A DNA stretch of 64,000 nt from a bacterium (GCA_963676395.1 OY781066.1:1120001-1184000); one strand, 5' to 3'; numbered from the stretch's first letter, positions 7,682 to 22,641 are shown. The notes: generated by a model from the letters alone, not told the origin. Program-made: numbers and translations.

Positions 7682-9999
7682 GTTTTCTGTTTTTGCATTG
7701 CCCTGTAGACTTTCTCGGGTGTAAAGGGTGCTCCGACCATTCTTACCCCCACAGCATCATAAATGGCATTTGCAATGGCGGGCATAGGACCGTTGATGCC
7801 AATCTCGGAAACCGATTTGGCGCCATAGGGACCGGAGTCCTCATGTGATTCTACAACAAAGCTCTTCATCTTAGGTATATCTGCCGCCGTCGGGATCTTG
7901 TAGGATTTAAATCCTTTATTCAAAAGATTACCCTTGGCGGAGAAAATATATTCTTCGGTCATAGCATAGGCAATTCCGTTCACGGTAGCACCTTCGACCT
8001 GACCTTCGGCCAGCTGCGGGTTAATGGCTTGTCCGCAATCCACCGCCGATACAAATTCCAAAACTTTCACCTGACCCGTTTTGGTATCCACTTCCACTTC
8101 GGCAGCCTGACACATAAAGGGTGGCGGTGATTGTTCAACAATTTCCGAGGCCTCAGCCTGGATTTGGAATTGATTATGATCATACAAAGCGTAGCAACAT
8201 ATTTCGCCGTAACTTTTAGATATTTTTTGTCTTTTATCATAGACTACCGAATTCTCGGTAAAGAGGTCTTCGAGCTTCGCATCCATCATTTCTGCGGCAA
8301 CGCCAAGGATTTGATCTTTAACCTTAAGGGCACATTTCTTAACGGCCCGACCGGAAAGATAGGTCGTTGATGAAGCATATGCTCCCACATCAAAAGGTGT
8401 GCGATCGGTATCCGATGAATAAACTATGATCTTACTCAGCGGAATGTCTAGAGCCTCGGCCGCGATCTGGGCAAGAATGGTGTCCGAGCCTGTGCCAATA
8501 TCTGTGGCACCAATATTCATATTAAAGGAACCGTCTTCATTCATTTTCATATAAGCGGCCGCCATATCAACAAGTGGAATGGCCGAACCTTGCATTGATA
8601 CCGCCAATCCAACACCACGCACTTTATCACCGTTTGTGATCTTCTTATTATATTTATTGTACCAATCGATCTCTTTCACACAGATATCGATACATTCATC
8701 CAATTTACAGGAATTGACCACCTGAGGAACACCATCTTTTCCTTCACCCAATGCTTCGAAAACACCGGAGGTCTCACCGACCTGAATATGATATTTTTTA
8801 ATATATTCCGGCAGATCCAACTCAAGTCTACGCGTGATCATATCCAAATGCTGATTCAAGGCAAAATAACCCTGCGTAGCACCATAACCGCGATATGCAC
8901 CACCAACGGGCAGATTGGTATAGACAGAACGGCCCAGAAAGTGCATGTTCTCAATTTTGTTAAACAACGGTAATACCTTAGAACCGCAGTTAGATAACAC
9001 GGTTAAAGCATGCGAGCCGTAAGCACCGGAATTCAAAAGCGAATCCATTTCAAGGAAAGTGATCTCGCCGGTATTCTTTACGCCGGTTCTAAGACGAACA
9101 CGAATAGGATGGCGGGTACGGGAATTTTGAAATACTTCCGCACGCGAGATAACCAGTCGGGCCGGTCGCTTATGCCTAAGCGTTACCAATGAAGCTAAAG
9201 GCTCCAAAAATACTTCCTGCTTGGAACCAAAACCGCCACCGATACGCGGTTTGATCACACGAATTTTAGATAGCGGATAATCAATGGCCTGGGCCACAAT
9301 ACGGCGCACATGAAAAGGGACCTGAGTTGATGAAATAATCACCAATCGACCTTGCTCATCGAACATGGTTTTAACAGAATGCGGTTCAATGGCGCAATGC
9401 TGACCGTAGTGAGCATTGTAAGTTTCATCGATAACAAAGTCAGCTTCTTCTTCACCCTTCTTGATATCACCAAAGGCAATATCCACTTCGGCAGCCAAAT
9501 TCTTTTCGGGTTCGTATTTTGCACCAATAGGATAAGCATGGGAAGCATCGTGCAATTTGGGAGAATCTGGATCCATGGCTTTTTCCGCATCGAGAAGCGG
9601 TTCCATGACCTTGTACTTTACCTCAAGCATTTTTGCCGCCATGTGGGCTGTCTTGCGATCCTCAGCCACGATCATAGCAACGCGGTCGCCCACAAATCGC
9701 ATGGTGGTATCAAAGATCAAACAATCATAAGGAGACGGCTCAGGGAATCCTTGTCCCGCCGAAGTATGCAAAATTTGCTTTACATTCTTGTAATGCAGCA
9801 CATCCACCACACCTTCCACGGCACGAGCCTTGGAATCGTCGATATCCAAAATTTCGGCATAGGCGTGAGGGGAATACGCTAACTTACAATAGAGTGCATT
9901 CTTGATCTCGAAATCATCGACATACTTGGCTGAGCCGGTCGCAAGCGATAAAGCATCGACCTTTTTCTCAGGCTTACCTACGGTAGTATATTTTTTCAT
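7678..9999 (-). CDS. xdhD: Xanthine dehydrogenase family molybdopterin-binding subunit (XdhD-like)
   Basis: STQVPFH, KPRIGGGFGSKQE, YRGYGATQG, DIGTGSDT, AYASSTTY, GQVEG, GPYGAKSVSE. Confidence 0.85.
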   Translation of the reverse strand: MKKYTTVGKPEKKVDALSLATGSAKYVDDFEIKNALYCKLAYSPHAYAEILDIDDSKARAVEGVVDVLHYKNVKQILHTSAGQGFPEPSPYDCLIFDTTMRFVGDRVAMIVAEDRKTAHMAAKMLEVKYKVMEPLLDAEKAMDPDSPKLHDASHAYPIGAKYEPEKNLAAEVDIAFGDIKKGEEEADFVIDETYNAHYGQHCAIEPHSVKTMFDEQGRLVIISSTQVPFHVRRIVAQAIDYPLSKIRVIKPRIGGGFGSKQEVFLEPLASLVTLRHKRPARLVISRAEVFQNSRTRHPIRVRLRTGVKNTGEITFLEMDSLLNSGAYGSHALTVLSNCGSKVLPLFNKIENMHFLGRSVYTNLPVGGAYRGYGATQGYFALNQHLDMITRRLELDLPEYIKKYHIQVGETSGVFEALGEGKDGVPQVVNSCKLDECIDICVKEIDWYNKYNKKITNGDKVRGVGLAVSMQGSAIPLVDMAAAYMKMNEDGSFNMNIGATDIGTGSDTILAQIAAEALDIPLSKIIVYSSDTDRTPFDVGAYASSTTYLSGRAVKKCALKVKDQILGVAAEMMDAKLEDLFTENSVVYDKRQKISKSYGEICCYALYDHNQFQIQAEASEIVEQSPPPFMCQAAEVEVDTKTGQVKVLEFVSAVDCGQAINPQLAEGQVEGATVNGIAYAMTEEYIFSAKGNLLNKGFKSYKIPTAADIPKMKSFVVESHEDSGPYGAKSVSEIGINGPMPAIANAIYDAVGVRMVGAPFTPEKVYRAMQKQKT

Positions 10000-10005
10000 A
10001 ATGTT

Positions 10006-10473
10006 TTACTTTTTTTGAAGTCGTTTTGCCGCCAGCATGACCGCTTCCACGATCTTGACATAGCCGGTACAACGGCACAAATTTCCATCCATAGCCTTTG
10101 TTGCTTCGTCCTCTGTAGGATGTGGATTTTCCTGCAAAAGCGCATAGGTCGCAAGTACAATACCCGGCGTACAAAAACCACACTGCACGGCGCCGCAATC
10201 CACAAAAGCTTCTTGGATCACATGCGGTTCATGCAGATCGCCGATGCCTTTTACGGTGAGCAATGTATCATCTTCGCAGACCGAGGCTGTGAACATCAGA
10301 CAAGAATTGACCGGCTTACCGTTAAGCAACACAATACAGGCACCGCACTCACCCTCTTTGCAACCGCTTTTCACTTCGGTGAAACCGGCTTTACGCAGAG
10401 TAAAAAGCAAATGCTCCTCAGGCGTAAACTCTATTTTTACGGCTTTACCGTTTACATTTAATATTGAATTCAT
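10006..10473 (-). CDS. Xanthine dehydrogenase family 2Fe-2S subunit
   Basis: KSGCKEGECGAC...NSCL and QCGFCTPG...NLCRCTGY motifs. Confidence 0.92.
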   Translation of the reverse strand: MNSILNVNGKAVKIEFTPEEHLLFTLRKAGFTEVKSGCKEGECGACIVLLNGKPVNSCLMFTASVCEDDTLLTVKGIGDLHEPHVIQEAFVDCGAVQCGFCTPGIVLATYALLQENPHPTEDEATKAMDGNLCRCTGYVKIVEAVMLAAKRLQKK

Positions 10474-11285
10474 TGAACACTCTCCAGGGCAGAAATAATC
10501 GCGCGTTGTGTTTCGATCTTTGCCTTAATGCCCATATACTCGGGATCCGTAATGCGCGCACCCACAATACTTACATTCACCCGTTCTTGCACCTTGGCAT
10601 CCACAATTTCGTCCTTCTTTTTCCCAAGAAGATAGCTCTCGAGCTCAGACAGATGAGTGATGCGCTCTTTGGTACCCACAATATAGACCTTGGCACGCTT
10701 AATGACATCCGTCTCTAGCTCCAGCAATACCGTGATAGTGAACAAAGGCATATCGTTCACTGTTTTCACATCGCAATAATGTGCCGAGTAATGGGGCGTA
10801 TCTTTCACACGAACCGCAGTGATAAGAGTTTGCTCCCGCAATGCCGCATCGTTAAGATAGTCCTCAACCGCAACGACACCCTCATGTTTTCCCGCCAGAA
10901 CGATTTCAGCGTCAAGCGCCAAAAGGGCGCCGATCAGATCGGACCATGACGGCACGAAGGCGATCGAGCCGCCGATCGTGATGCGATTTCTACAAGGAGT
11001 ATTGGCTGCGTTTTTTAATGTTTTTACAAGAATGTGCTGAGGAGAAAGAGATGACAATACGTTTACCACATCGGCATAGGTGCTCATCGCCCCGATCTCC
11101 AGCATATCTTTGTCTTTTTTTACATAGTCCAACCCAAGCTTGCGCAGACAGATAATACCATCTACATCTCGCAACTCACGACCGCTGAGATGCGTGCCGC
11201 CACCATGGAGAACCACGTTTTTTATCTCTAGCAGAGAACGCGCCTCAGCCAGAGATACCGGAAAGTACCACTTAATTTTATTCAT
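10470..11285 (-). CDS. Xanthine dehydrogenase family FAD-binding subunit (YgfM/CoxM-like)
   Basis: GGGT, EIGAMST, RNRITIGGSI, SDLIGALLALDA. Start taken at ATG 11285 (MNKIKWYFP); the track extension to 11408 runs through the promoter and repeat DNA. Confidence 0.85.
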   Translation of the reverse strand: MNKIKWYFPVSLAEARSLLEIKNVVLHGGGTHLSGRELRDVDGIICLRKLGLDYVKKDKDMLEIGAMSTYADVVNVLSSLSPQHILVKTLKNAANTPCRNRITIGGSIAFVPSWSDLIGALLALDAEIVLAGKHEGVVAVEDYLNDAALREQTLITAVRVKDTPHYSAHYCDVKTVNDMPLFTITVLLELETDVIKRAKVYIVGTKERITHLSELESYLLGKKKDEIVDAKVQERVNVSIVGARITDPEYMGIKAKIETQRAIISALESVQ

Positions 11286-11321
11286 AATTAGAAATTTCCG
11301 ACAATGAGGGGCAAATGTCAA
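11286..11321 (-). promoter_or_regulatory. Sigma70-type promoter of the purine-catabolism operon (probably leaderless)
   Basis: Minus strand TTGACA (11321-11316), 17 nt, GAAATT, 7 nt, ATG 11285; no SD sequence. Confidence 0.5.
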
Positions 11322-11344
11322 GAAAATAATAGCCCCTACGGTGC

Positions 11345-11803
11345 AAGGCAAAGGGCAAAATTCAAAAGGCAAAGAAAGATCTATCCACAAATTGCTCTCC
11401 TTCAGCAAGCCTTCGAAAGGTCGGGTAGATAATAAATCTACATTATCTAATCAATATTTCTGAGATTCTTTTCCATTCTTCTCCAGAAAAAGAAGATTTT
11501 TCAGGTTTATATGAATTCCAGTCCGCACTTGATAAATCTTTAATTTTATCTCGCAATTCTTTTGCTGAATGCGGGCGCGTGCATAATTTTGTGTAAACGA
11601 TCTTTCAATCAAAGTTCCTCCTACGCTCTTCGAGCTTACATCTTCTCCGTCAGCCGACGGATTTGATGCACAGATCGGAAGGGCACGCAGATTTCTTTAC
11701 GTTTTTATCGGCAAAATCGATGCCCGACGACTTAAAATAATGCATCTATTTAATAAAATATTTTTGGGCGCATCGTGAACACTAAAGCTACGACCGGACA
11801 GGC
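11345..11803. repeat. Patch of short palindromes, REP-like remnants and degenerate heptamers
   Basis: AAGGCAA/AGGGCAA/AAAGGCA units at 11345-11374; hairpins CCTTCGAAAGG (11410-11420), GCTCTTCGAGC (11625-11635), TCCGTC-AGCC-GACGGA (11646-11661); CTAAAGCTACGACCGGACAGGC (11782-11803). Confidence 0.45.
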
Positions 11804-11896
11804 GAAATCCACACAATCTTGTCCTTTTATAAAAGCTATGACTTTTAGCTATCCCATTACATAATAATATTAGTTTTAGAAATACAATAAAAGGAC

Positions 11897-11925
11897 TTGA
11901 TGAATACGGGGGTTTAAGCTAGATT
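11897..11925 (+). promoter_or_regulatory. Repeated promoter module, copy 1
   Basis: TTGATG-aatacgggggtttaagc (17 nt)-TAGATT; spacer shared with the copies at 13570 and 14625. Confidence 0.6.
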
Positions 11926-11945
11926 CACATTAATTGCTATACAAA

Positions 11946-12117
11946 TAAGAATTGCAGAATTGCGTAGCTAAAAAAATGAACACTCGGATTCAAAATCGGG
12001 GGGACAAAATTTTTGGAGCATTCATGCAAAAATGCATGTACAAAACAGGCCTGATTTTAGTAAATTTAAACTCTGAAACCCAAAATTGGATGCTATTCTT
12101 ACACTTTGCCGTTAAAC
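11946..12117 (+). repeat. attC-like imperfect palindrome ending in a GTTRRRY core
   Basis: TAAGAATTGCA (11946-11956) is inverted with TGCTATTCTTA (12091-12101), followed by ...CC-GTTAAAC (12111-12117), 23 nt before the next ATG. Confidence 0.5.
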
Positions 12118-12140
12118 ACTATTAAAACAAGGATCCGCTA

Positions 12141-13274
12141 ATGAATAGATTATTTGGAAAAATGCGTTTGTCTCTTATAAATAAAGCCCAAAAGGGAAAT
12201 TATATTAAGTATGCAATTGGAGAAATTTTTCTTGTTGTAATTGGAATTCTTATTGCTCTTCAAATAAATAATTGGAACGAAGACAGAAAGGATAAAATAT
12301 ATAAACATAAAGTTTACGCTCAAATACAACAAGATTTACAAAGAGATACTCTGTATATCAGTGGCAGGATCGAATTTTATAAAGAAAAAAATGAACGGTT
12401 AGAAAAAATTATTAATAGAGAAATTCCAAAATCATACTACGATACACTTAATGCAAGCAATTATAAAAATTGCAGCAATTGTATTTGTGATTTAACAAGC
12501 AACTACTTTTTTCATTACTCTGATAAAGGATTTCAATTATTAAAATCATTGAATGAATCTCGCAATACCGAAAATGATTCGCTTTCGTATTTAATACTTG
12601 ATTTTTATAACGCTTACATACCCGCTTTGAAATTTGATAGTCAGATGCTAGCAGATATTATGAATGAAACAATTGATGAGTTTCAAAAATACGATTGGTA
12701 TGTTGATTGGGCTTATTATAACAGAGTTTACAACCAAGAATATCTGAAATACATTTTTGAAAGCGAAGAATATCGTAAAAAATGTGTCCGGTATTTAATC
12801 TATTCAAAATCGAACTACTTAAATAATTTGAAAATCTATAGAAGATATGCTGTAGAATTATTAAAGCTGCTGGATAAAGAATTATTTAACAAAAAGCTCT
12901 ACGAAAGAGAAAAACAGTTTATAGAAAAAATCAAAACAAAAGGAATTGATAAAGCCACTGACTATTATAAAACATTTAAAAAGAAGACAAAAAATGAAAA
13001 CAAGTTGCTATTTACTGAAAATGCAATGAATTTGTTGGGGTATTCCTATCTAAAGAAAAATGAGTTGATAACTGCCATTAAGATCTTTCAATTAAATGTC
13101 GCTGAACATCCAAATTCTTTTATTGTTTACGATAGTTTAGCAGAAGCATATTTAGCAAATGGAGAGAAGAAAAAAGCAATTGAAAATTATAAAAAATCAG
13201 TTGAACTAAATCCAAATAATGAAAATGCGATTAACATTTTAAAAACAATAACTGTGCCTACTATTGCTAAATAA
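12141..13274 (+). CDS. DUF6090-like membrane-anchored protein with C-terminal TPR domain
   Basis: N-terminal KYAIGEIFLVVIGILIALQINNWNE signature; C-terminal MNLLGYSYL...YDSLAEAY...AIENYKKSVELNPNN TPR. Confidence 0.75.
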   Translation: MNRLFGKMRLSLINKAQKGNYIKYAIGEIFLVVIGILIALQINNWNEDRKDKIYKHKVYAQIQQDLQRDTLYISGRIEFYKEKNERLEKIINREIPKSYYDTLNASNYKNCSNCICDLTSNYFFHYSDKGFQLLKSLNESRNTENDSLSYLILDFYNAYIPALKFDSQMLADIMNETIDEFQKYDWYVDWAYYNRVYNQEYLKYIFESEEYRKKCVRYLIYSKSNYLNNLKIYRRYAVELLKLLDKELFNKKLYEREKQFIEKIKTKGIDKATDYYKTFKKKTKNENKLLFTENAMNLLGYSYLKKNELITAIKIFQLNVAEHPNSFIVYDSLAEAYLANGEKKKAIENYKKSVELNPNNENAINILKTITVPTIAK

Positions 13275-13569
13275 TCATGATAACAGAAAAATCACAGTCA
13301 TTCATTTTATAGCACTAAACATTTGCAAGCTACAAAGCCAAGCCATCATGTATATCTCGTGATCTCGTCGAAAACATCTCGTTAAAGATGTCTTAAACAA
13401 TATCAATCAAGCGATCGATTTGACGGTGAAGGGCAATAAGAAATAGGTTCCGAATTCCAAATTTATGATTCTTGATTTAATCTAGATTGCGTCTCCTTTA
13501 ATCATATTTAATTATCTTTATTAATTATTTCTATATTTTTCATCTTATTCCCCAAAACACAAAAACAAG

Positions 13570-13598
13570 TTGCCGAATACGAGGGTTTTAATTATATA
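13570..13598 (+). promoter_or_regulatory. Repeated promoter module, copy 2
   Basis: AAAACAAG-TTGCCG-aatacgagggttttaat (17 nt)-TATATA, followed like copy 1 by AAATAAGAATTG. Confidence 0.6.
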
Positions 13599-13788
13599 AA
13601 CCCAGAAATAAGAATTGTTCATATTTCAGGTTTGCATATGACAATAGAATCAATTGAAAATTATAATAAATCAAAATATTTTAATGAATTGCTTAGAAAT
13701 ATGATTGATTATAAGCTAAGAAACTCTCGCCATCTGCCACTACCCATATAATTTACCGTCAGATGTTATAAATACCGGTAAGCGAAAA

Positions 13789-14442
13789 ATGAAGAAAACA
13801 ATGAAAAAAATACTATTATTAAGCGGATATGCATGTAAATCGTGGATATGGGACAAATTCATTGAGCTTAACAAGGCAGATTATATAGTAGATAAGGTTG
13901 ATTGGCCGCTTAACTTGACTAATCGATTCCATAGCTTAGAGGATTATGTGGTATGGCTGAATAAGGAGTTGAAGAAAAAGAACTATGATTATGACTTGTT
14001 CATTGGTCATAGCATGGGGGGATTGGTTGCTTTACAATTAGCCAACAAATTATCAATTAATGAGATTATTCTAGTCGAATCTTTTATTAAAACACCTGAT
14101 GCTTTTTTTAAAAATCTTTTATATGACAATAATAATGAACTTGCTTCTAAGATAGAAAATATGATAAAGAATGAAAGCATACACTATTCAAAAGAATTAG
14201 GATACAAATTAAAAAATTTAGACTTAACCGAGACGGCTGTCAATTTTGAAGGTACTATACGACTACTATACGGTGATAGAGGGTACAATAGTTTGAATAA
14301 AGTCATGTCTAATCTTGATTTAAGTGGAAGGCTGGCAGATAAAATGGAGGTATCCATTATAAAAAACAGTTGTCACTTTCCAATGGTGGAAAATCCATAT
14401 GAGTTCAGCTTGATAATCAATAATATTTTAACTGATCATTAG
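13789..14442 (+). CDS. Alpha/beta fold hydrolase
   Basis: GHSMGG nucleophile elbow; C-terminal SCHFPMVENP catalytic His. Confidence 0.85.
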   Translation: MKKTMKKILLLSGYACKSWIWDKFIELNKADYIVDKVDWPLNLTNRFHSLEDYVVWLNKELKKKNYDYDLFIGHSMGGLVALQLANKLSINEIILVESFIKTPDAFFKNLLYDNNNELASKIENMIKNESIHYSKELGYKLKNLDLTETAVNFEGTIRLLYGDRGYNSLNKVMSNLDLSGRLADKMEVSIIKNSCHFPMVENPYEFSLIINNILTDH

Positions 14443-14624
14443 TATAAGCCATTTCTATGACGCCTGGCAAATAATTATTAGCACGGCATGATATCTTTTG
14501 TCGGAATGTGAGATACAATTTGTTAAAAACAAAATTTCTTGTGATTTACTCTGACTTCTCGTTTCCGACCTCTAATTCCTCATCTCCACACCTTCATCTC
14601 CATCGAAATACATAAAAAAACAAG

Positions 14625-14653
14625 TTGTTGAAGGCGAGGGTTTTGGGTAAGTT
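14625..14653 (+). promoter_or_regulatory. Repeated promoter module, copy 3
   Basis: AAAACAAG-TTGTTG-aaggcgagggttttggg (17 nt)-TAAGTT. Confidence 0.55.
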
Positions 14654-14663
14654 TTATGAAATT

Positions 14664-14772
14664 AGTTAACACACATAAAAATGAAATACATAAAAAACAT
14701 ACGATATATGACGCATACACAGCCAAATTGGACAAGTATACGACATATATCGTATATGCAAACCTTAGATGA
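14664..14772 (+). repeat. attC-like long inverted repeat
   Basis: AGTTAAC at 14664-14670. Arms ATACGATATATGACGCATAC (14699-14718) and GTATACGACATATATCGTAT (14736-14755) are 18/20 complementary. The right end AACCTTAGATG resembles a mutated GTTAG core. Confidence 0.55.
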
Positions 14773-14795
14773 AATTATTTTTTTGAAGGATCAAT

Positions 14796-15062
14796 ATGAA
14801 AAGAAAAATATTACTCATGTTATTTATTATAAATACTATGATGATTCTTATATACTATATACCTTTTTGTCAACAGATTGCTCATGTTTTATTTAATAGT
14901 GAAGCAGCTTCAATTGGTATCATAGGTGGAGTAGATGGCCCAACTGTAATCTACATAGCATCACAAATAAATTGGTTCCCAATTATTATGTTTTCCATAG
15001 AAATTGTTTTAGGATTATACATATTGTTAACGCGTTCAAAAAATAAGAAAGATATTTTATGA
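14796..15062 (+). CDS. Small membrane protein carrying the Na+-translocating decarboxylase beta-subunit motif
   Basis: EAASIGIIGGVDGPTVIYIAS matches the OadB ASIGIIGGADGPT motif, in an 88-aa protein with two hydrophobic segments. Confidence 0.7.
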   Translation: MKRKILLMLFIINTMMILIYYIPFCQQIAHVLFNSEAASIGIIGGVDGPTVIYIASQINWFPIIMFSIEIVLGLYILLTRSKNKKDIL

Positions 15063-15634
15063 AATGGTTATATAACAATTGGTTTAAATCAACAATTTTT
15101 TTAGCGATATATATGCTCATACTATTATGCATATTCGTTATGAATAATAATTTTGGGTTATTTCTAATTTGGCTTCAAACTATAGTATACTTATTCCACC
15201 AATTTGAAGAATATGTTTTTCCAGGTGGATTTGGAGAATTCTTCAATACAAAAACGCTCGGTTCAAAAGATAAAGACTTTCCTGTAGATAAAAAGGTGTC
15301 TTTTTGGATTAATATCCCAATAATTTTTATTGGATTTCCTCTTTCAGCAATTCTATCAGGATTTATTGATATTTCAATTGGAATATGGACTGCTTATTTT
15401 TCAATAATTAACGCACTTTCGCATGTTGGAATGTTCTTTAAACATAGATATAATCCTGGATTTTTTGTTAGCTTGTTTCTAAATATTCCAGTCGGATTAT
15501 ACACGATATATTATTTTACAACGAACCAAATAATTTCAATAAATGCACATGTAATAGGACTAATTATAGGACTTATAGTTCAAGGAATTGTTATGGTTTA
15601 TGGGTTTAGAGTATTAAAACCAAAAATTAAATAA
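15059..15634 (+). CDS. HXXEE domain-containing membrane protein
   Basis: YLFHQFEEYVFPGGF and RYNPG motifs; several transmembrane segments; ATGA overlap with the upstream ORF. Confidence 0.85.
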   Translation: MKWLYNNWFKSTIFLAIYMLILLCIFVMNNNFGLFLIWLQTIVYLFHQFEEYVFPGGFGEFFNTKTLGSKDKDFPVDKKVSFWINIPIIFIGFPLSAILSGFIDISIGIWTAYFSIINALSHVGMFFKHRYNPGFFVSLFLNIPVGLYTIYYFTTNQIISINAHVIGLIIGLIVQGIVMVYGFRVLKPKIK

Positions 15635-15756
15635 ACTGTTGCTAACAGTGTGTATAAGTAATATCATGGCTTGTAGTTCGTATCAACATTATCACGGTTT
15701 GATAATTAATTGCTCCAAAGTCCGCCACTACTCATACACGAACCGGTAGCAGTAAG
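15635..15756 (+). repeat. Best-preserved attC-like site
   Basis: Starts directly after the stop codon. Left arm ACTGTTGCTAACAGTGTGTATAAGTAAT pairs imperfectly with right arm ACTACTCATACACGAACCGGTAGCAGTAAG. TGCTAAC is R''-like; GGTAGCA is a one-base variant of GTTAGCA. Confidence 0.65.
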
Positions 15757-15798
15757 TTGAGACATAAATAACCTAAACGATGGATTATAGAGATAACA

Positions 15799-16686
15799 AT
15801 GAATTATAGAGATATTGTATTTATTACCGTTGCCGAAAATCTTAGCTTCTCAAAAGCTGCTGCTGATTTGCATATAAGTCAACCGGCAGTAACCAATCAT
15901 ATAAAGGAATTAGAAATTAAGTTTAATTCTAATTTATTCGAACGTAAAGGAAACAAAATTTACCTTACCCATAAGGGAAAGGTTGTGTATAATAAATACA
16001 AGCAAATTGAACAGTACTACAGGGAACTCGATTTTGAAATAGGTCAATTAAACAATAGCATGTCTGGTGACTTTATAATTGGAGCCAGCTCCACCATATC
16101 GCAATACCTTATTCCCAAAATAATTGCTTCATTTCATAAACGCTTCCCGAAAGTAAATATGCACCTAATGAATGGCAATTCGTTTGAAATAGAGCAACTT
16201 TTACTTGATAGCAAAATTGACATGGCACTGGTAGAAAATCACGCATCTCAATCAGGAATCAGGTATAAAAATTTCCTTGATGACGAACTAATTTTTGTGA
16301 GTGGAGAAAATAGTGTTTTCGCAAAGCGAAAGAACATTAATAAAAATGACTTACTGCAAATTCCAATTGTATTAAGAGAAAAGGGGTCGGGCACATTAGA
16401 AGTAATAAAAGAAGCTTTTTTAAAGCAAAATATTGATTTTGAAAGTCTAAATGTGCCTATTCACCTAGGAGGAACCGAAGCTATAAAGAATTTTCTGCTC
16501 GATTTTGATGGTTTAGCAATTATTTCAAAACAAGCTGTCATAACTGAACTGAGTTTAAAAAAACTGGTAGAAATTAAAGTCGCAGGTTTTAGTATTCCAC
16601 GCAAATTTCGTATCGCTTACAAAATTGGATATATAAGCCGGCAGGTTGAATTATTTGAAAATTTTTTACTGCACTATAATTTATAG
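15799..16686 (+). CDS. LysR family transcriptional regulator (YeiE/CysL-like)
   Basis: SFSKAAADLHISQPAVTNHIKELE HTH; GASSTISQYLIP; REKGSGT; next to a YeiH-family gene. Confidence 0.92.
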   Translation: MNYRDIVFITVAENLSFSKAAADLHISQPAVTNHIKELEIKFNSNLFERKGNKIYLTHKGKVVYNKYKQIEQYYRELDFEIGQLNNSMSGDFIIGASSTISQYLIPKIIASFHKRFPKVNMHLMNGNSFEIEQLLLDSKIDMALVENHASQSGIRYKNFLDDELIFVSGENSVFAKRKNINKNDLLQIPIVLREKGSGTLEVIKEAFLKQNIDFESLNVPIHLGGTEAIKNFLLDFDGLAIISKQAVITELSLKKLVEIKVAGFSIPRKFRIAYKIGYISRQVELFENFLLHYNL

Positions 16687-16752
16687 TTATAGCATATAAC
16701 TATTTCGAATTTAATTATATTATAATCCAATTGTACTTTTGAACAAAAAAGT

Positions 16753-17712
16753 ATGAGAGGAATTATGACAATAAAAAGCCTAATAAATAGCAAAATAGAG
16801 TTTGTAAACATTAAATTGCTATATGTAATAATTATTAGTTTCTGTTTTCTACCGTTTGTATCTCCGGCAATTGCCTTATTTATAGGTTTAGTGCTTTCTC
16901 TTATCGGGATCAGGCACAAAAATATTCATAAATACACATCGCATATATTACAACTCTCTATTGTTTTATTGGGTTTTGGGATGAACCTAAGCGATGTACT
17001 TGCCGCTTCAAAAAGTGGTTTCCTCGAAACTGCAATTTCAGTTTCATGTGTAATGGCTTGTGGTATCTTATTAGGCAAGCTCTTTAAGGTTGAAAAAAAT
17101 ATCTCGCTCTTAATAGCAACAGGTACGGCTATTTGCGGAGGAAGTGCCATTGCTGCAGTTGCACCAATATTAAACAGTAAAAATTATCAAAATTCGTTTG
17201 CTCTTATTGTTGTATTTGTGCTAAATGCTGTCGCGCTATTTTTGTTTCCCCTAATCGGTCATAAGTTAGGCTTAAGCCAGGAAACATTCGGGAACTGGGC
17301 AGCTATTGCCATTCACGATACCAGCTCGGTTGTTGGTGCGGGGGCAAGTTATGGCGAAAAAGCATTGCAAGTTGCAACAACCGTTAAACTTATACGTGCC
17401 TTATGGATTATCCCGCTATCATTGGTTATCGCTTTTTTTAATAAACGTGACGAAAAAAAGAAGATTAAACTTCCATGGTTTATATTGATATTTGTCCTTG
17501 CCATCGTATTTGCTAATATATTTCCAAATTTTCAGACCAGCTATTCTCATTTTGCCTGGTTAGGCAAACGCGGAATGGTTGTCGCTCTGTTTCTAATTGG
17601 ATCAAACATCTCAATTGACCAAATCAAACAATCCGGAGTAAGGAGTTTTGCACTTGGAATTTCCTTGTGGGCAATAATTTCGGTTGGTTCATTATTTCTT
17701 TTGACCCGTTAA
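16753..17712 (+). CDS. YeiH family putative sulfate exporter
   Basis: LIATGTAICGGSAIAAVAP, AIHDTSSVVGA, TTVKLIRALWI. Confidence 0.9.
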   Translation: MRGIMTIKSLINSKIEFVNIKLLYVIIISFCFLPFVSPAIALFIGLVLSLIGIRHKNIHKYTSHILQLSIVLLGFGMNLSDVLAASKSGFLETAISVSCVMACGILLGKLFKVEKNISLLIATGTAICGGSAIAAVAPILNSKNYQNSFALIVVFVLNAVALFLFPLIGHKLGLSQETFGNWAAIAIHDTSSVVGAGASYGEKALQVATTVKLIRALWIIPLSLVIAFFNKRDEKKKIKLPWFILIFVLAIVFANIFPNFQTSYSHFAWLGKRGMVVALFLIGSNISIDQIKQSGVRSFALGISLWAIISVGSLFLLTR

Positions 17713-17715
17713 GCT

Positions 17716-17898
17716 ATGCCAAATATCTATATCATACTAACCCTTGTTGTTTCCAGCTTGACAAAGGGAATAACCGGATTTGGATTTGCATTATTTTTTC
17801 TGCCAATACTTTTAACCCGGTACGGGCAAAAAAAAATAATTTCCGTCCTGATGATTGATAAACCATCAATATTTTTTAATATTGATACCACTTGTTAA
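17716..17898 (+). pseudogene. Truncated TauE/SafE (TSUP) sulfite exporter fragment
   Basis: LTKGITGFGFAL...LPIL N-terminal TSUP motif, but only 60 aa. Confidence 0.6.
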
Positions 17899-18000
17899 AT
17901 CAATTAAATTTCTGAAAGTATTTGAAATGAATAGGAAATATGAACAATAATGTCAACAGCTAACATTGCACAGATTGTGCTAAAATTAAACGGATAAATC

Positions 18001-19002
18001 ATGAGATATAATAATTCTACATTTAAAGCATTTCGGGTTGAAGAGAAAAATGGCAACTACATCGGTTCCGTTAAAAACATTGAATTCAGTACTTTGGACA
18101 AAGATGAAATCTTGGTAAGAGTGCACTACAGTTCACTAAATTACAAAGATGCTCTGTCTGCTTCGGGAAACAAGGGCGTTACAAAAAATTATCCCCATAC
18201 CCCGGGTATTGATGCTGTTGGGGTAATTGAAAAATCGAACGATATAAATCTAGAAGTTGGTGAAAAAGTAATAGTAACCAGCTACGATTTAGGGATGAAC
18301 ACCGACGGAGGATTTGCCGAATATATCAAAGTCCCTGCTAAATGGGCCGTTAAATTGCCCGAGAACATGACCATGAAAGAAGCTATGGTATATGGAACGG
18401 CCGGATTAACTGCCGGTATGTCGGTTTTAAGACTGACTGAATTGATAAAACCGGAAGATGGAAAAATAGTGGTTTCAGGCGCTACCGGTGGTGTAGGTTC
18501 ATTAAGCGTTTCGATATTGAGTAAATTAGGATACACTGTCGTCGCAATAACAGGAAAAGAAGCAGAACGGGATTATTTAATGAACCTTGGGGCAAAAGAA
18601 ATAATATTGCGCAACGAAATTGAAAAGTTAGATAAAAAACCCTTGTTAAAACCTTTATTTGCAGGTGCAATAGATACTGTTGGTGGAACAATTCTTGAAA
18701 ACATTATTAAATCAACTGATTCGATTGGTGTCGTTACTTGTTGTGGCAATGTGGCATCACCCAAACTTGACTTAACAGTTTTCCCCTTTATCCTAAGAGG
18801 AATTACGCTCATTGGAATTGATTCTCAAAACTACCCAATGAAATACAGGACAAAAGTGTGGGAAATGCTATCGGATAAATGGAAACCAAAACAATTAGAG
18901 GATACTTGCTTCGAAGTTAAGCTTGAAGAAATACAAGAAAAAATTGCCTTAATGCTTCAGGGAAAGCTAAAAGGAAGAACCATTTTGAAATTGATCGAAT
19001 AA
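18001..19002 (+). CDS. YhdH/AcuI family NADPH-dependent quinone/acryloyl-CoA oxidoreductase
   Basis: YSSLNYKDAL, PGIDAVG, GTAGLTA, SGATGGVGS, DTVGG, PFILRG, GIDS. Confidence 0.92.
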   Translation: MRYNNSTFKAFRVEEKNGNYIGSVKNIEFSTLDKDEILVRVHYSSLNYKDALSASGNKGVTKNYPHTPGIDAVGVIEKSNDINLEVGEKVIVTSYDLGMNTDGGFAEYIKVPAKWAVKLPENMTMKEAMVYGTAGLTAGMSVLRLTELIKPEDGKIVVSGATGGVGSLSVSILSKLGYTVVAITGKEAERDYLMNLGAKEIILRNEIEKLDKKPLLKPLFAGAIDTVGGTILENIIKSTDSIGVVTCCGNVASPKLDLTVFPFILRGITLIGIDSQNYPMKYRTKVWEMLSDKWKPKQLEDTCFEVKLEEIQEKIALMLQGKLKGRTILKLIE

Positions 19003-19190
19003 ATACACAAAATTTTATGTCAGGTTCATCCTAATGTTGGATTCATGATCAATTATCTGTTCCTCACGGATGGATAACCATACGCATATCCCTGACTAAG
19101 CTTAAACCAACCGATAGCTGTAATGTGATAAAGAGCCATTTACTTATTGATACTCAAAGTTCAAAATTATTGAAAAACAAGGCAGAATAA

Positions 19191-19599
19191 ATGAACACAT
19201 GTAAAAAATGCGGTAATGAGTATAATATTTCAGTGGATAACTCAAAATTATGGTTATTCAAACATTTTAATGGCAGTTTTTGTGGCCATGTGGATTAAAA
19301 TATTTTATCGAAAATATATCTATAACTTTTATGAAATTCTAATTCTCTTGCTTTTTATAAGCGGAATGGAAATGTTAATGTTTTCGCTATTAGGCATGCT
19401 GAAGAGTCTAACAAAAATACATGTTATGAGCATTGGAGCTAACATTGTTTTAATTTATGCTTTCTGGGCAATTGGTCAATTTTTTGACAAAAGAAAAATA
19501 TTTAATTATATCAAAGCTCCTATTGCATATTTCTAAGGATTTATTTCTTTTACTATCGTGGCTTTAGGAATTGGATTTTTAATAGACTTGATAAAATAA
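19191..19599 (+). pseudogene. DUF3667-like membrane protein pseudogene (internal deletion, frameshift, premature stop)
   Basis: ATG 19191 gives MNTCKKCGNE (zinc-ribbon start). Another frame then gives IFQWITQNYGYSNILM...YNFYEILILL...WAIGQFF...IAYF*GFISF...LIDLIK*, with in-frame TAA at 19534-19536 and the natural stop at 19597-19599. Confidence 0.7.
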
Positions 19600-19601
19600 A
19601 A

Positions 19602-19670
19602 ATTACCGCTAACACGCTGTATAAGCAAAGACTGTTGATGTGCTAAATTTCAAGATTTGTGCAGGTTGAT
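19602..19670 (+). repeat. Left half of an attC-like site closing the AT-rich island
   Basis: ATTACCGCTAACACGCTGTATAAGCAA, with the same GCTAAC-N6-TATAAG spacing as 15641-15658; 2 nt after the stop codon. Confidence 0.55.
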
Positions 19671-19715
19671 AAGTTTTAAGCGAGGAAGAGAGTTATCTTG
19701 TCTCAAGTCTTTCTG

Positions 19716-20945
19716 TCAAACGATATCGTAAAACGTCCCATAATCGGGGTCATACAATCTCTTATAGATCTTCGGTAAGGAAATATCCGTCTGTTCGGCA
19801 AAGTAATCGCAAACCATCCGGGCGACGGCTACATAATCATTTGCATCGAGTTGTTTGAGTTTTTCCCTTAGAACTTTGGGAAGGATATTTTTATGAAGAG
19901 TAAAATTATCGGGACCACCTTGCAAGAAGGTTTCAAAAAGTCGTTTAAGGATATAGCGGCCTTTAAATTCCAGCTGTTCCAGTTGCGGAGAGCGGAAAAT
20001 AATATCAACCGCAAGGCGTTTGTATAGGGTATTCTCGATCTCGACATCGGGATCGATCTCAATGCCGTATTTATAGCGATTGGTTTTATCTGCCAAAGGG
20101 TGTTCGCGTTCTACAATACTGGCGCCCTGGATAAAGCGTCCCGTGCGGGAAGCCAGGTAACGATCGAAGTCTTCACGATGATCCAGTTTAGCGATCACAG
20201 TATCCAAATAACGGGCTTCATCTTTGCTGAGCTCATGCTCGTTGGCCCAGTGTTCTATTTCTTTGCGATTTACAAATCCGGCCAGATAACCATCCGACAG
20301 ATCATGTAACGAATACGCAACATCATCGGCCCAGTTCATGATCTGGCATTCCAGACTGCGTTCGGCATGACGTTCTTTGCCACCGTTAACGAATTCTAAG
20401 TACTTATCCTGATCATCGTAGAGAAATTTACTTTCTTTGGTTCTGTCCGACCACAGTACTTTATATTTCAACACACCATCCACAAAGGCGCGGCTGGGTT
20501 TCATACCCTGATCACCTTCGAGATCTTCATGTAATTGCTCGGTCACGATCTTTAGTGTCTGCGCATTGCCTTCAAATCCGCCGGCCTCTTTCATAAGCCC
20601 GTTCAACATGGCCTCACCGGGATGTCCGTAAGGTGGATTGCCCAAATCATGGGCCAAACAAATGCCTTCTACCAAATCTACATCAATGGCTCTTTCTTTA
20701 AAATGTGTCGTGTTCAAATAATGAACAATAGAGCGACCGATCTGTGCAACTTCTAAAGAATGAGTTAAACGAGTACGGTAAAAATCGTGAGCACCGGATT
20801 TAAAGACTTGGGTTTTATTCTGCAAACGACGAAAAGCACCGCTATACAAAATGCGGTCGCGATCAACCTGGAACACCGTACGATAATGATCATCGTGACG
20901 GGCTCCCAATGTTTCGCCGTCAAAGCGATTATAAAAGTGTGTCAT
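19716..20945 (-). CDS. dgt: dNTP triphosphohydrolase (dGTPase, HD domain)
   Basis: DRDRILYSGAFRRLQNKTQVF, RTRLTHSLEV, LAHDLGNPPYGH, FEGNAQT, WADDVAYSLHD. Confidence 0.93.
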   Translation of the reverse strand: MTHFYNRFDGETLGARHDDHYRTVFQVDRDRILYSGAFRRLQNKTQVFKSGAHDFYRTRLTHSLEVAQIGRSIVHYLNTTHFKERAIDVDLVEGICLAHDLGNPPYGHPGEAMLNGLMKEAGGFEGNAQTLKIVTEQLHEDLEGDQGMKPSRAFVDGVLKYKVLWSDRTKESKFLYDDQDKYLEFVNGGKERHAERSLECQIMNWADDVAYSLHDLSDGYLAGFVNRKEIEHWANEHELSKDEARYLDTVIAKLDHREDFDRYLASRTGRFIQGASIVEREHPLADKTNRYKYGIEIDPDVEIENTLYKRLAVDIIFRSPQLEQLEFKGRYILKRLFETFLQGGPDNFTLHKNILPKVLREKLKQLDANDYVAVARMVCDYFAEQTDISLPKIYKRLYDPDYGTFYDIV

Positions 20946-21175
20946 TAGCTTACATTAACGACTTCGACAACTTCCGGAATTTCGTTTTTAAGGACACGTT
21001 CGATGCCGGCTTTGAGAGTCATTGTTGACATTGGGCAACCTTTACAAGCACCTGTCAAGCGGACTTCAACGACATTATCTTCACGGACGTTGACCAATTC
21101 ACAATCACCGCCATCCATCTGCAAAGAAGGACGGACTTTATCTAAAACTTCTTGAACTTTTGCTCTATCTAACAT
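20945..21175 (-). CDS. NifU/Nfu-type Fe-S scaffold domain protein
   Basis: [11 protein letters not shown]...[20 protein letters not shown]; start placed at ATG 21175 behind AAGGA. Confidence 0.9.
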
Positions 21176-21257
21176 GATGTTTCCTTTATAGTTGATTCGT
21201 TTTTTCAAGACATAATATTAACACATAATTTTTATTATTCAAAGGAAATCGGGTGAA

Positions 21258-21312
21258 AGAATTTAGAATTTAGTATACAGTATTTAGTAGTTAGTAGGAG
21301 TAGTTAGAAGTT
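21258..21312 (+). repeat. Degenerate heptamer array (AGWADTT consensus), about 8 units
   Basis: agaattt agaattt agtatac agtattt agtagtt agtagg agtagtt agaagtt. Confidence 0.75.
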
Positions 21313-21604
21313 GGGTGAGCGATTTTACATCAACAAATTTTAGATCATGTATTAACTCTAAATAATTTTCCGTTTCATTTAATGATCCTTTTGAGATTAA
21401 ATAAAAACGAACCTTATCCTTTAGATGAAATCGTCCGAATCCTTCAGAAATATTTGCCGGAATTGAAAGAGCAGATCGTCTGATCTGACTTGTCAGGCCA
21501 TACTTTTCTTCTTTTGGGAGTTTATTCGTGACCTTGTAGATATTTTTTACGAGAATATGAGCTTTTTGCCACACAATCAAATCTTGATAGCGTTTTGCTT
21601 TCAT
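21284..21604 (-). CDS. Four-helix-bundle protein (23S rRNA IVP / bAvd-like family), probably C-terminally truncated
   Basis: YQDLIVWQKAH, LPKEEKYGLTSQIRRSALSIPANISEGFGR, SKGSLNE. The last helix is replaced by repeat-encoded LLTTPTNY. Confidence 0.85.
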   Translation of the reverse strand: MKAKRYQDLIVWQKAHILVKNIYKVTNKLPKEEKYGLTSQIRRSALSIPANISEGFGRFHLKDKVRFYLISKGSLNETENYLELIHDLKFVDVKSLTQLLTTPTNY

Positions 21605-21631
21605 TTTTCGTCCCTCAATTTATATTTCGTC

Positions 21632-21673
21632 CACTACTAACTACTGTATTCTAAATGCTAACGACTAACTACT
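21632..21673 (-). repeat. Degenerate heptamer array inverted relative to 21258-21312, 6 units
   Basis: Plus strand cactact aactact gtattct aaatgct aacgact aactact; includes the phoH stop codon. Confidence 0.75.
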
Positions 21674-22628
21674 TCTCTTCCTTTTTCTCCCCATCATACG
21701 CATCAATAATCTTTTTCACCAACGGGTGCCTGACAACATCGATCACATTGAGTTCACAAATGGCAATACCGTCAATATCGCGCAACAAATCAATCGCGGT
21801 ACAAAGTCCGGAGCGTTGATTGTAAGGAAGGTCAATTTGAGTTACATCACCAGTAATAAAGGCTTTAGAGTTCACACCGATACGGGTGAGAAACATCTTC
21901 ATTTGCAAATCGGTGGTGTTTTGCGCTTCATCTAAAATGAGGTAAGCGTTATCTAAAGTTCGTCCACGCATATAAGCCAGCGGTACGATCTCGATCACAT
22001 GTTGTTCGATATAAGCTTTAAATTTCTCAGGAGCGATCATACTGCGCATGGCATCGTACAAAGGCGCTAAATAAGGGTCAATCTTGTCTTTCATGTCACC
22101 GGGTAGAAATCCCAGTCGTTCACCGGCTTCAACCGCAGGACGAGTAAGTATAATACGCCCGATCTCGCGATTCTTGAGAGCGGCCACCGCACAAGCAACC
22201 GCCTGATAGGTTTTACCGGTACCGGCCGGACCGATCGCAAAGGTAATATCGTTTTCCAAAGAAGCACGGAAATAAGCTTCCTGTCCCTCAGTACGGGGTT
22301 TGATCACACCTTTATGAGTAAACAATATAATAGAGTCATCGGGACCCGAATACACTTTTTCGTTATGATCCGTTTCCATGTTGATCACGGTTTGGATATC
22401 TTTTTTATCCAGTTGTTTTCGCGCCGGGATCAGATGGATCAGCTCTTCCAGCACATGGTTGATTTGTTCTACGACCTCAAACTCACCATCGATGATCAGG
22501 CGTTCTCCACGTGCGGTAATGGTAGCATTAAAATGATTTTGCAATATCTTAAGGTTTTCATCCCGTACCCCAAGCAAAGCTATAGGATCAAAGCCTTTTA
22601 TGATGATCTCGCGTTTGGTGTTCGTCAT
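21669..22628 (-). CDS. phoH: PhoH family ATPase (YbeZ-like)
   Basis: GPAGTGKT, LTRPAVEAGERLGFLPGD, PLAYMRGRTL, DEAQN, GDVTQIDL, VVRHPLV. Confidence 0.95.
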   Translation of the reverse strand: MTNTKREIIIKGFDPIALLGVRDENLKILQNHFNATITARGERLIIDGEFEVVEQINHVLEELIHLIPARKQLDKKDIQTVINMETDHNEKVYSGPDDSIILFTHKGVIKPRTEGQEAYFRASLENDITFAIGPAGTGKTYQAVACAVAALKNREIGRIILTRPAVEAGERLGFLPGDMKDKIDPYLAPLYDAMRSMIAPEKFKAYIEQHVIEIVPLAYMRGRTLDNAYLILDEAQNTTDLQMKMFLTRIGVNSKAFITGDVTQIDLPYNQRSGLCTAIDLLRDIDGIAICELNVIDVVRHPLVKKIIDAYDGEKKEEK

Positions 22629-22641
22629 GGAGTCTCCCGGC

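Follow-up and report, generated by a model that had tools for sequence, protein, structure and literature searches.

An integrase-less gene island with attC-like sites, probably a worn and distant part of a XerA-type recombinase system

How does an AT-rich island of plus-strand genes come to lie between two minus-strand blocks, with attC-like palindromes in its spacers and no recombinase beside it? The question is raised by a locus in a 64,000-nucleotide stretch of a complete 2.34-Mb bacterial genome (GCA_963676395.1, OY781066.1:1120001-1184000), which we call the window and number from its first letter; positions elsewhere in the genome carry the prefix C1 or are given in kilobases. A preliminary description took the locus for a decaying, integrase-less, integron-like cassette array, possibly served by an uncharacterised tyrosine recombinase encoded elsewhere. 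Having followed this up, we regard the island as probably a recombinase-distal, partly eroded cassette cluster of an integron-like system run by a Xer/XerA-type tyrosine recombinase, here called P0001.

The island holds one whole site, which begins at the stop codon of the HXXEE gene and ends 45 nt ahead of the LysR gene (15633-15754; Table 1). Exact-word scans from 15636-15756 find near-identical right arms at 715.5k, 718.4k and 1833.8k of the genome, and the window site aligns over about 140 nt with genome copies at 715k, 718k, 720k, 723k and 1833k. The layout of this family starts with R'' (six variable bases and AAC), 4-6 nt and L'' (TATAAGTAATGGCAG or a covarying variant), and goes on with a loop containing conserved blocks, L', 8-9 nt and R' (GTT and six variable bases). 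On the top strand an A in L'' stands opposite a C in L', so that the bottom strand forms G-T pairs, and folding favours the bottom strand over the top in each of the four sites tested (-21.8/-18.6, -21.2/-17.1, -14.5/-10.1 and -15.8/-9.3 kcal/mol). RNAalifold, run on the bottom strands, gives compensatory changes in 14 of 30 predicted pairs, and AAC/GTT cores are present in nearly all of 66 distinct sites (from 70 alignment rows) gathered from 15 arrays, three in this genome and 12 in other species. The family as a whole therefore has attC-like architecture, that is, imperfect inverted repeats, AAC/GTT cores and a single-strand fold; in the window one site has it. The boxes of that site read R'' GTTGCT/AAC (the slash marks the edge of the core triplet), L'' TATAAGTAAT, L' ACTACTCATA and R' GGT/AGCAGT; it has a 19-nt deletion relative to the family and a core triplet GGT instead of GTT, and folds with -15.8 kcal/mol on the bottom strand (z -2.58) against -9.3 on the top (z 0.01).

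A covariance model of the whole site, built from this genome's copies and referred to as R1, returns 17 matches at E<=10 in the genome and scores the window site as high as members of arrays A and B. Model building and scanning of this kind had been proposed in the preliminary description, and they brought to light the same site family in three further, cleaner arrays (A, B and C) and in relatives. The conserved intergenic motif is present in arrays A-C and at 3 to 4 of 7 spacers in the window, and the exact word GCTAAC-N6-TATAAG occurs twice in the genome, both copies being in the island.

Do these sites bound cassettes in the way that integron sites do? Integron recombination crosses over within the GTT of R', so that whatever follows GTT is part of the next cassette and pairs with the R'' which that cassette itself carries. 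For the 66 sites we took the six-base word behind GTT and checked it against the reverse-complemented six-base word in front of AAC. With the next site downstream the agreement is 6/6 in 33 of 50 adjacent pairs and 5/6 in another five (mean 5.02), against a mean of 2.45 within the same site (6/6 in 1 of 66), 2.52 with the previous site and 2.48 with other sites of the same array (6/6 in 8 of 214). Most of the poor adjacent pairs span gaps of 2.3-4.9 kb, in which a site has probably been missed. Cassette boundaries inside the R' core are found across the arrays, and this complementarity is the signature of integron cassettes; as a pattern in sequence it is strong evidence for what would be site-specific exchange at the core, with the cassette as the unit.

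Which enzyme might act on them? The genome encodes three full-length tyrosine recombinases and two fragments (Pfam PF00589). One of the full-length proteins is a clear XerD (362 bits) among housekeeping genes, and P0001 lies two kilobases downstream of it. P0001 passes the NCBIfam model NF040815, named 'XerA / integron integrase' (237.9 bits, cut-off 220), and aligns end to end with Pyrococcus XerA (4a8e, 1.6e-44). Under TIGR02249, the integron integrase model, it scores 209.8 bits against a cut-off of 265, in two stretches that skip model positions 182-238, and no protein of the complete genome matches that model above its cut-off. In the alignment with VchIntIA (2a3v), residues 179-204 of P0001 face 180-248 of the chain and about 43 residues are skipped; judged from these alignments, the skipped stretch is the IntI-specific additional domain. 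Directly after the P0001 stop codon comes a 100-nt spacer that ends CATACACTAACGTT/GTGCCC, and the cassettes then begin. This attI-like spacer fits the junction rule, with GTGCCC facing GGGCAC of the first site. The cassettes of array A encode Abi_alpha and an unknown protein, a 930-aa SIR2_2 protein, AAA_15/21 with HNH, HD-CE/HATPase and more, with sites of the family between them. P0001, at the head of an array of the same sites, is the candidate for the recombinase that had been supposed to lie elsewhere. That the locus itself is integrase-less is confirmed, in that no recombinase is encoded in or around the island within the searched 64-kb window region, the closest being some 400 kb away.

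Only part of what the preliminary description listed in the island belongs to this family. Profiles of left and right half-sites, derived from 12 copies beyond the window, were run over both strands of the genome (4.67 Mb). These recover the left half (15633-15665, 20.0 bits, E 1.4e-3) and the right half (15711-15757, 24.9 bits, E 3.3e-5) of the whole site, together with a right-half relic at 13727-13771 (CTGCCACTACCCATATAATTTACCGTCAG vs CTGCCACTACTCATACAATTTACCGTTG in the family), which stops 18 nt short of the start codon of the hydrolase gene. The right edge of the island is occupied by a left half with part of the loop (19597-19660); its left half, 19597-19640, scores 13.5 bits, the best background match reaching 12.8 bits, whereas the whole-site model gives the relic merely 9.5-14.2 bits. 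The rest of that site is unrecognisable and would extend into the stop codon of the HD gene. Positions 19618-19660 are 84% identical to G023:C62:1497-1539, inside an R1 match of 104.4 bits, and this likeness in sequence is independent support for the relic. At 19087-19125 there is a possible, strongly decayed right half, with a score that five background matches alone reach in the 4.67 Mb (at least 7 bits). Of the ten half-sites listed at the outset, profile scores thus uphold four, leave 19087-19125 as weak, and speak against five: those at 17957 and 13254 (left halves 17949-17970, 2.2 bits, and 13245-13260, 1.3 bits) are noise, 565 background matches reaching at least 1 bit, and those at 14664 (left), 12109 and 14761 (right) have no profile match.

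With filters off, R1 finds 28 other matches at E<=10 between 10000 and 22000, all of at most 14.1 bits, and three spacers hold no recognisable site. The covariance model also gives 1.3 and 4.3 bits for half-sites on short stretches, scores that are uninformative because truncated alignment is not in use when filters are off. The idea that the spacers carry palindromes of the form R''(..AAC)-L''...L'-R'(GTT..) is right as to architecture and holds for one whole site alone, with core GGT. The idea of a decaying locus fares better, given the 19-nt deletion, the GGT, GTC and GAT cores, the site-less spacers and the gene fragments. Site positions fit cassette boundaries, because the 13727 relic precedes the hydrolase gene, the 15633 site stands between the HXXEE and LysR genes, and the 19597 relic sits at the island edge. 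One pair of words in the window can be put to the junction test, R' AGCAGT against AGCGGT, the reverse complement of the right-edge R'', and it agrees at 5/6; no further sites with partner words for the window R' and R'' boxes were found.

Table 1. Coordinates of the features discussed (window numbering, unless prefixed C1 or given in kilobases of the genome)
Feature	Position	Strand	Basis and remarks
Variable region	11333..19719	none	Takes the place of a 150-1000 bp spacer in congeners
Low-GC island proper	about 11831-19719		GC 0.317
Left flank: FAD-binding subunit, molybdopterin dehydrogenase operon	10470..11285	-	Pfam FAD_binding_5, 5e-25
Right flank: HD-domain phosphohydrolase gene	19716..20945	-	Pfam HD + HD_assoc; kept in congeners
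Whole attC-like site	15633-15754	+	R1, 103.7 bits, E 2.4e-24
Right-half (L'-R') relic	13727-13771	+	Right profile, 19.5 bits, E 1.7e-3 genome-wide; core GTC
Left-half relic and part of loop, right island edge	19597-19660	+	R'' ACCGCT/AAC, L'' TATAAGCAAAGAC
Possible strongly decayed right half	19087-19125	+	7.0 bits; ..AACCGATAGCTGTAAT; core GAT
D1 box, 29-nt direct repeat (AAAAACAAGTTGccGAAtaCGAGGGTTTT)	11888-11916, 13561-13589, 14616-14644	+	Repeat search
DUF6090 + TPR protein gene	12141..13274	+	Pfam DUF6090 26.9 bits, TPR_2 34.3 bits; GC 0.270
Alpha/beta hydrolase gene	13789..14442	+	Pfam Abhydrolase_6, 28.5 bits
OAD_beta-like membrane protein, 88 aa	14796-15062	+	Pfam; overlaps HXXEE gene
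HXXEE protein gene	15059-15634	+	Pfam; overlaps OAD_beta-like open reading frame
LysR regulator	15799-16686	+	Pfam
YeiH-type membrane protein (Cons_hypoth698)	16753-17712	+	Pfam
TauE-like fragment	17716-17898	+	17.1 bits vs cut-off 32.6
YhdH-type quinone oxidoreductase (ADH_N/ADH_zinc_N)	18001-19002	+	Pfam
P0001, XerA-like tyrosine recombinase, 279 aa	C1:712955-713794 (L007 6955-7794)		Heads array A, co-oriented with cassettes
Array A	715-724.6k		R1; five strong sites and a weak one at 728k
Array B	C1:1832344-1839650		Five R1 sites and a sixth found afterwards; no recombinase
Array C	C1:1104784-1107423, about 13 kb before window start		Two R1 sites; no recombinase

How did the block come to its present place? 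GC is 0.278-0.316 across 12001-17000, against 0.467-0.483 at 9001-11000 and 0.452 at 20001-21000 (1-kb windows), and per gene it is 0.27-0.375 in the island against 0.446-0.48 in the flanking genes, so that the early picture of an AT-rich island between minus-strand blocks is borne out, as is the claim that every island gene lies on the plus strand, which is true of all named open reading frames from 12141 to 19536. When a 13.7-kb query was compared with 30 relatives, the flanks alone were matched, and the cargo had no DNA-level match in any of them. In six congeners (G011, G015, G002, G004, G012, G010) the flanks lie 150-1000 bp apart on one contig, and in a finer BLAST comparison with four congeners homology ends at 11330-11332 and picks up again at 19720-19723. 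Because the flanks adjoin in six congeners and homology breaks at the island edges, we read the island as an insertion. The same alignment to congeners puts the start of the left-flank gene near 11285, not at the TTG at 11408. There are no tRNA genes in 9000-23000 that could have served as insertion target, and neither window 11000-20500 nor two array loci match anything in Rfam at E<=1.

In the sequence of events that we propose, P0001 would cut the folded bottom strand at the AAC/GTT core, and cassettes would leave as circles and normally enter at attI. We infer a single-stranded substrate and circle intermediates because of the analogy with integrons and the strand asymmetry. The island cassettes would have arrived by off-target insertion or array rearrangement, next to the 3' end of the HD gene; their sites would afterwards have suffered deletions and mutations (cores GGT, GTC and GAT, halves gone) while gene fragments built up. 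The block is probably immobile now, with little activity of its own.

If cassettes of this kind travel, their genes should be met between such sites elsewhere, and for one gene they are. HXXEE has no match at E<=1e-10 in 400 other genomes of the phylum sample, and 60 homologues in metagenome contigs. We scanned 46 loci for sites, namely 45 of the 60 HXXEE loci and one hydrolase locus (L281), and found family sites in four: they flank the gene directly in L229 and L222 and are more distant or weaker in L250 and L262. In L229, HXXEE stands alone between two sites, and its cassette start GTT/AGCAAC is the reverse complement of the window R'' GTTGCT/AAC; in L222 the HXXEE cassette runs from GTT/GGCAAC to GTTGCC/AAC. 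The hydrolase has relatives at two loci in the genome contigs, and no site was found at L281, the one scanned. That homologues of the island genes are flanked by the same palindrome elsewhere is therefore correct for HXXEE (L229, L222), and for this one gene alone.

Several observations weigh against reading the island as a cassette cluster of this system. It has one whole site in 8.4 kb, and five of the ten motifs listed in it are noise. The right-edge half-site, taken alone, is borderline (E 0.16), and the 5/6 agreement of the sole testable pair is a level reached by 20 of 214 unrelated pairs. The HXXEE cassette does not have its expected 5' boundary GTT/AGCAAC, no clean junction was found, and 42 of the 46 loci scanned in the HXXEE survey have no family site nearby. 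No docking site is scored at the native HD-gene end: by eye CTA(C/T)ACAATATCGTA recalls CTCATACAATTTACCGTT, but the right-half profile finds no match of 2 bits or more there in four congeners, and we dropped it as a docking mimic. The three D1 repeats are restricted to the island, stand outside the site family and are unpaired with the right halves. They lie 175-250 nt upstream of the first three gene units; a D1 profile finds no copy beyond these three in the genome and none in 79 loci, and the exact pattern has 48 single matches in genome contigs, from unrelated phyla, where we estimate about 35 by chance, which is chance level. As left arms of long sites they were rejected, as no pairing with right halves is seen in bottom-strand folds of 13555-13775 and 11885-12122 (z -2.31 and 0.01); D1 may represent a promoter common to these units, or what is left of a different type of site. 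Finally, the 68-nt stretch 13289-13356 is 91% identical to the native spacer beside the dehydrogenase operon in G011, is inverted and lies 2 kb inside the island, which points to rearrangements outside the model. It suggests, from sequence likeness, an inversion of about 11333-13356, possibly one that turned the DUF6090-TPR unit round; no inverted repeats were found at the presumed ends (11333 and 13356).

Some of these points would be natural if the island were a horizontally acquired block at an intergenic hotspot, that is, a foreign array imported as linear DNA by homologous or illegitimate recombination, whose hairpin sites are passengers never used here by the resident recombinase. Integrase-free hotspots of horizontal transfer between core genes have reportedly been described, and the likeness is plain, since here too a variable block separates two conserved genes that stand side by side in relatives. 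Congeners have 150 to 1000 bp of spacer between the two core genes, and it cannot be aligned from one congener to another; there are no recognisable recombination junctions, the D1 repeats and the inverted native fragment have their place in such a history, and GC is uneven (left 0.27, right 0.37). We nevertheless consider this explanation rather unlikely: the 15633-15754 site obtains its 103.7 bits from a model of the genome's own copies and so belongs to the resident family and not to a foreign one, and the right island edge coincides with a half-site of that family in cassette orientation. Resident site-specific recombination sites at gene boundaries and at the edge are what sets the island apart from a hotspot of the reported type. 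The palindromes could also be terminators or REP-like (repetitive extragenic palindromic) hairpins after genes, with no role in recombination, the arrays then being accessory operons. The sites do stand directly after stop codons, their hairpins are stable, and the native spacer 11640-11830 holds palindromic repeats unrelated to the family as well. Terminators do not predict complementarity across cassettes, perfect in 33 of 50 pairs as against 1 of 66 within sites; moreover, many genera have this family next to homologous recombinases, sites of this kind bound the same gene where the context is unrelated, and no Rfam family matches. We hold this to be very improbable.

The least credible account, to which we give almost no weight, is a classical CALIN (cluster of attC sites lacking integron integrases), in which attC sites of a true integron persist after loss of IntI. 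Its appeal is that R''-spacer-L''...L'-spacer-R' with AAC/GTT cores is attC architecture, and that CALINs are reportedly known. A CALIN is usually taken to need two or more neighbouring attC sites and no integrase in the vicinity; what the window offers, inside 6 kb, is a single whole site together with two half-sites that score significantly and a weak relic, none of them of IntI type. No protein of the complete genome reaches the IntI cut-off, the best being P0001 with model positions 182-238 unmatched; the three full-length tyrosine recombinases and two fragments are all that the genome offers, and the one that heads an array aligns with archaeal XerA and skips about 43 VchIntIA residues. 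Classical integrons, besides, are reported to be almost missing from this phylum: the IntegronFinder 2.0 preprint, where it treats Bacteroidetes, has a single complete integron, in Salinibacter ruber. Reviews, in the parts concerned, count Bacteroidota among the integron-bearing phyla. With no IntI in the genome and a P0001 without the IntI insert, the locus is not an integron, and very probably not a CALIN, in the strict sense in which the preliminary description could be taken.

A cassette cluster of the P0001 system thus remains our preferred reading, and the question becomes what this system is. The closest arrays in print, going by the passages that describe them, are the rAID-1 (recombinase-associated acquired interbacterial defence) arrays of gut Bacteroidales (Ross et al. 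2019, bioRxiv 10.1101/471110), in which co-oriented accessory genes of low GC (<41%) come after the gene of a predicted Xer-family tyrosine recombinase and have intergenic repeats 'reminiscent of integrons' (Ross et al. 2019, 10.1101/471110; 10.1101/2025.05.03.651265). In the relevant passage of the later preprint, a rAID is defined by a recombinase, two or more co-directional genes of <41% GC, and intergenic motifs (10.1101/2025.05.03.651265). Since integron-like arrays led by a XerD-family enzyme are in print there as rAID-1 (Ross et al. 2019), the recombinase system is not uncharacterised in kind, contrary to what had been supposed. Array A has the rAID-1 layout, with the recombinase directly upstream; the island genes are all of GC <0.41 and on one strand, with no recombinase adjacent in the window; and conserved intergenic motifs are present in arrays A-C and in some window spacers. 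The differences are that the window has no recombinase, that the island cargo consists of a regulator, transporters, an oxidoreductase and a hydrolase and not of short orphan immunity genes, and that the host is not a gut Bacteroides. The hairpin structure, strand bias and crossover point described here are also absent from the rAID-1 passages, and the words hairpin and attC do not occur in 10.1101/2025.05.03.651265. In published text other than the supplementary figures of Ross et al. 2019, we found no description of a hairpin architecture, a crossover point or recombinase-less clusters for a rAID-type system. Our comparison covers layout, GC and motifs. The rAID-1 recombinase is by definition a homologue of the B. 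fragilis reference BF9343_RS08045; two scans, one with P0001 and one with an 11-sequence profile, returned no B. fragilis record.

With integrons the system shares its site architecture, the better-folding bottom strand, cassette ends inside a conserved triplet, an attI-like site beside the recombinase gene, and satellite clusters without a recombinase; the defence cargo of array A (Abi_alpha, SIR2_2, AAA_15/21 with HNH, HD-CE/HATPase) also fits what passages of a preprint on integrons report (10.1101/2024.07.02.601686). It differs in that P0001 lacks the IntI-specific additional domain, which the literature, in the passages concerned, treats as defining for integrons, in that P0001 is co-oriented with the cassettes in this genome, and in that A in L'' regularly faces C in L' on the top strand, giving G-T on the bottom. 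As read here, the system would work like an integron; it falls outside the integrons by its integrase, and is rAID-like.

How far does it reach? Relatives of P0001 were found at 68 loci, almost all labelled Bacteroidota, and R1 matches adjoin in 26 of them, mostly downstream and co-oriented, in some upstream and divergent (L070, with six sites). At E<0.1 an Algibacter metagenome-assembled genome (MAG) has 11 sites, Algibacter sp. R77976 has 9 and Psychroserpens jangbogonensis has 8. A profile search added 79 further loci, 14 of them with sites; the recombinases of those 14 are all at least 39% identical to P0001, and no sites were seen at any proteobacterial, acidobacterial or archaeal locus among the 79. 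With recombinases of Bacteroidales MAGs P0001 shares 46-54% identity, and three of these recombinases (L044/L038, L153, L159) adjoin sites recognised by R1. In other genomes a contig often breaks off within some 50-300 bp of the end of the recombinase gene (L014, L015, L017, L022, L029, L030 and others), which fits repeated sites breaking assemblies, and arrays in MAGs are probably under-counted. Among the 30 relatives of this genome, sites occur in 14, including 10 of 18 congeners, and a P0001 homologue in 8; sites accompany a homologue in 5 of these 8 and are present in 9 of the 22 without one, most of these genomes being incomplete MAGs. G005, assembled in five contigs, has six sites and no P0001 homologue at E<=1e-40, and recombinase-less clusters are therefore not peculiar to this window.

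Put more generally, we see about an even chance that a Xer/XerA recombinase without the IntI domain runs a true integron mechanism across Bacteroidota, with folded hairpins, GTT/AAC crossover, circles and attI, and seeds recombinase-less satellites with metabolic, regulatory and defence genes. Recognition of folded attC sites is held to depend on the extra IntI domain. If the general claim were true, that domain would be unneeded for recombination at hairpin sites, and integron-like capture would have arisen twice or would predate IntI. AttC-like hairpins and integron-style junctions are found here under a recombinase without the extra domain, and such cassettes would end up far from the recombinase, where decay follows. 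Arrays of the rAID type can be examined with the covariance model and with the junction test (R' against the next R''), and there is reason to count recombinase-less clusters in surveys of the gene pool of these systems. The intact and mutated sites, with GTT, GGT, GTC and GAT cores, form a natural series for recombination assays.

As to the cargo, Pfam supports the early gene names DUF6090-TPR, hydrolase, OAD_beta fragment, HXXEE, LysR, YeiH and YhdH, and does not support TauE' and DUF3667', the latter having no Pfam match even at E<=10. GC is 0.32-0.375 in the LysR-to-YhdH block (15799..19002). Pfam finds no immunity-protein family in the island, and the sole immunity hint in the genome is a 17-bit WapI-like match adjoining array B. 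Cargo of arrays B and C includes a PHP+AAA protein, two S41 peptidases, a thioredoxin-domain protein and GNAT.

Some further words and repeats in and around the island deserve mention. The outer-box words ACAGCT/AAC at 17956-17964, before yhdH, and GAT/AGCTGT at 19113-19121, after it, are perfectly complementary, in the order R''...gene...R', the opposite of a cassette, and the first has no profile support; either the pair is a split site or it arose by chance, 6/6 agreement being seen in some 2-4% of unrelated pairs. In array A, the R' of the fourth site (G000:C1:723249-723262, GTTAGCGGTAATTT) is the exact reverse complement, 14/14, of the window R'' at 19595-19608 (AAATTACCGCTAAC) and agrees at 1/6 with the next site of array A. 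Going by these words, there may have been an exchange between array A and the island; the word class GCGGTAATT is common in the family, which weakens the match as a record of it. In the spacer before the OAD_beta-like open reading frame, 14699-14755 is an inverted repeat whose 20-nt arms are 90% complementary around a 17-nt loop; its sequence is not related to that of the site family (R1 11.8 bits, E 0.2). Left of the island proper, a 48-nt element at 11580-11627 (GTGCATAATTTTGTGTAAACGATCTTTCAATCAAAGTTCCTC.TACGCT) has one or several copies, at 87-96% identity, in no fewer than 12 of 18 congeners, where they sit on contigs other than the flank-bearing one; the DNA around it is merely about 75% identical between those genomes. 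The element has no Rfam match and contains a TAATTTTG box, which resembles the consensus of the Bacteroidota -7 promoter element.

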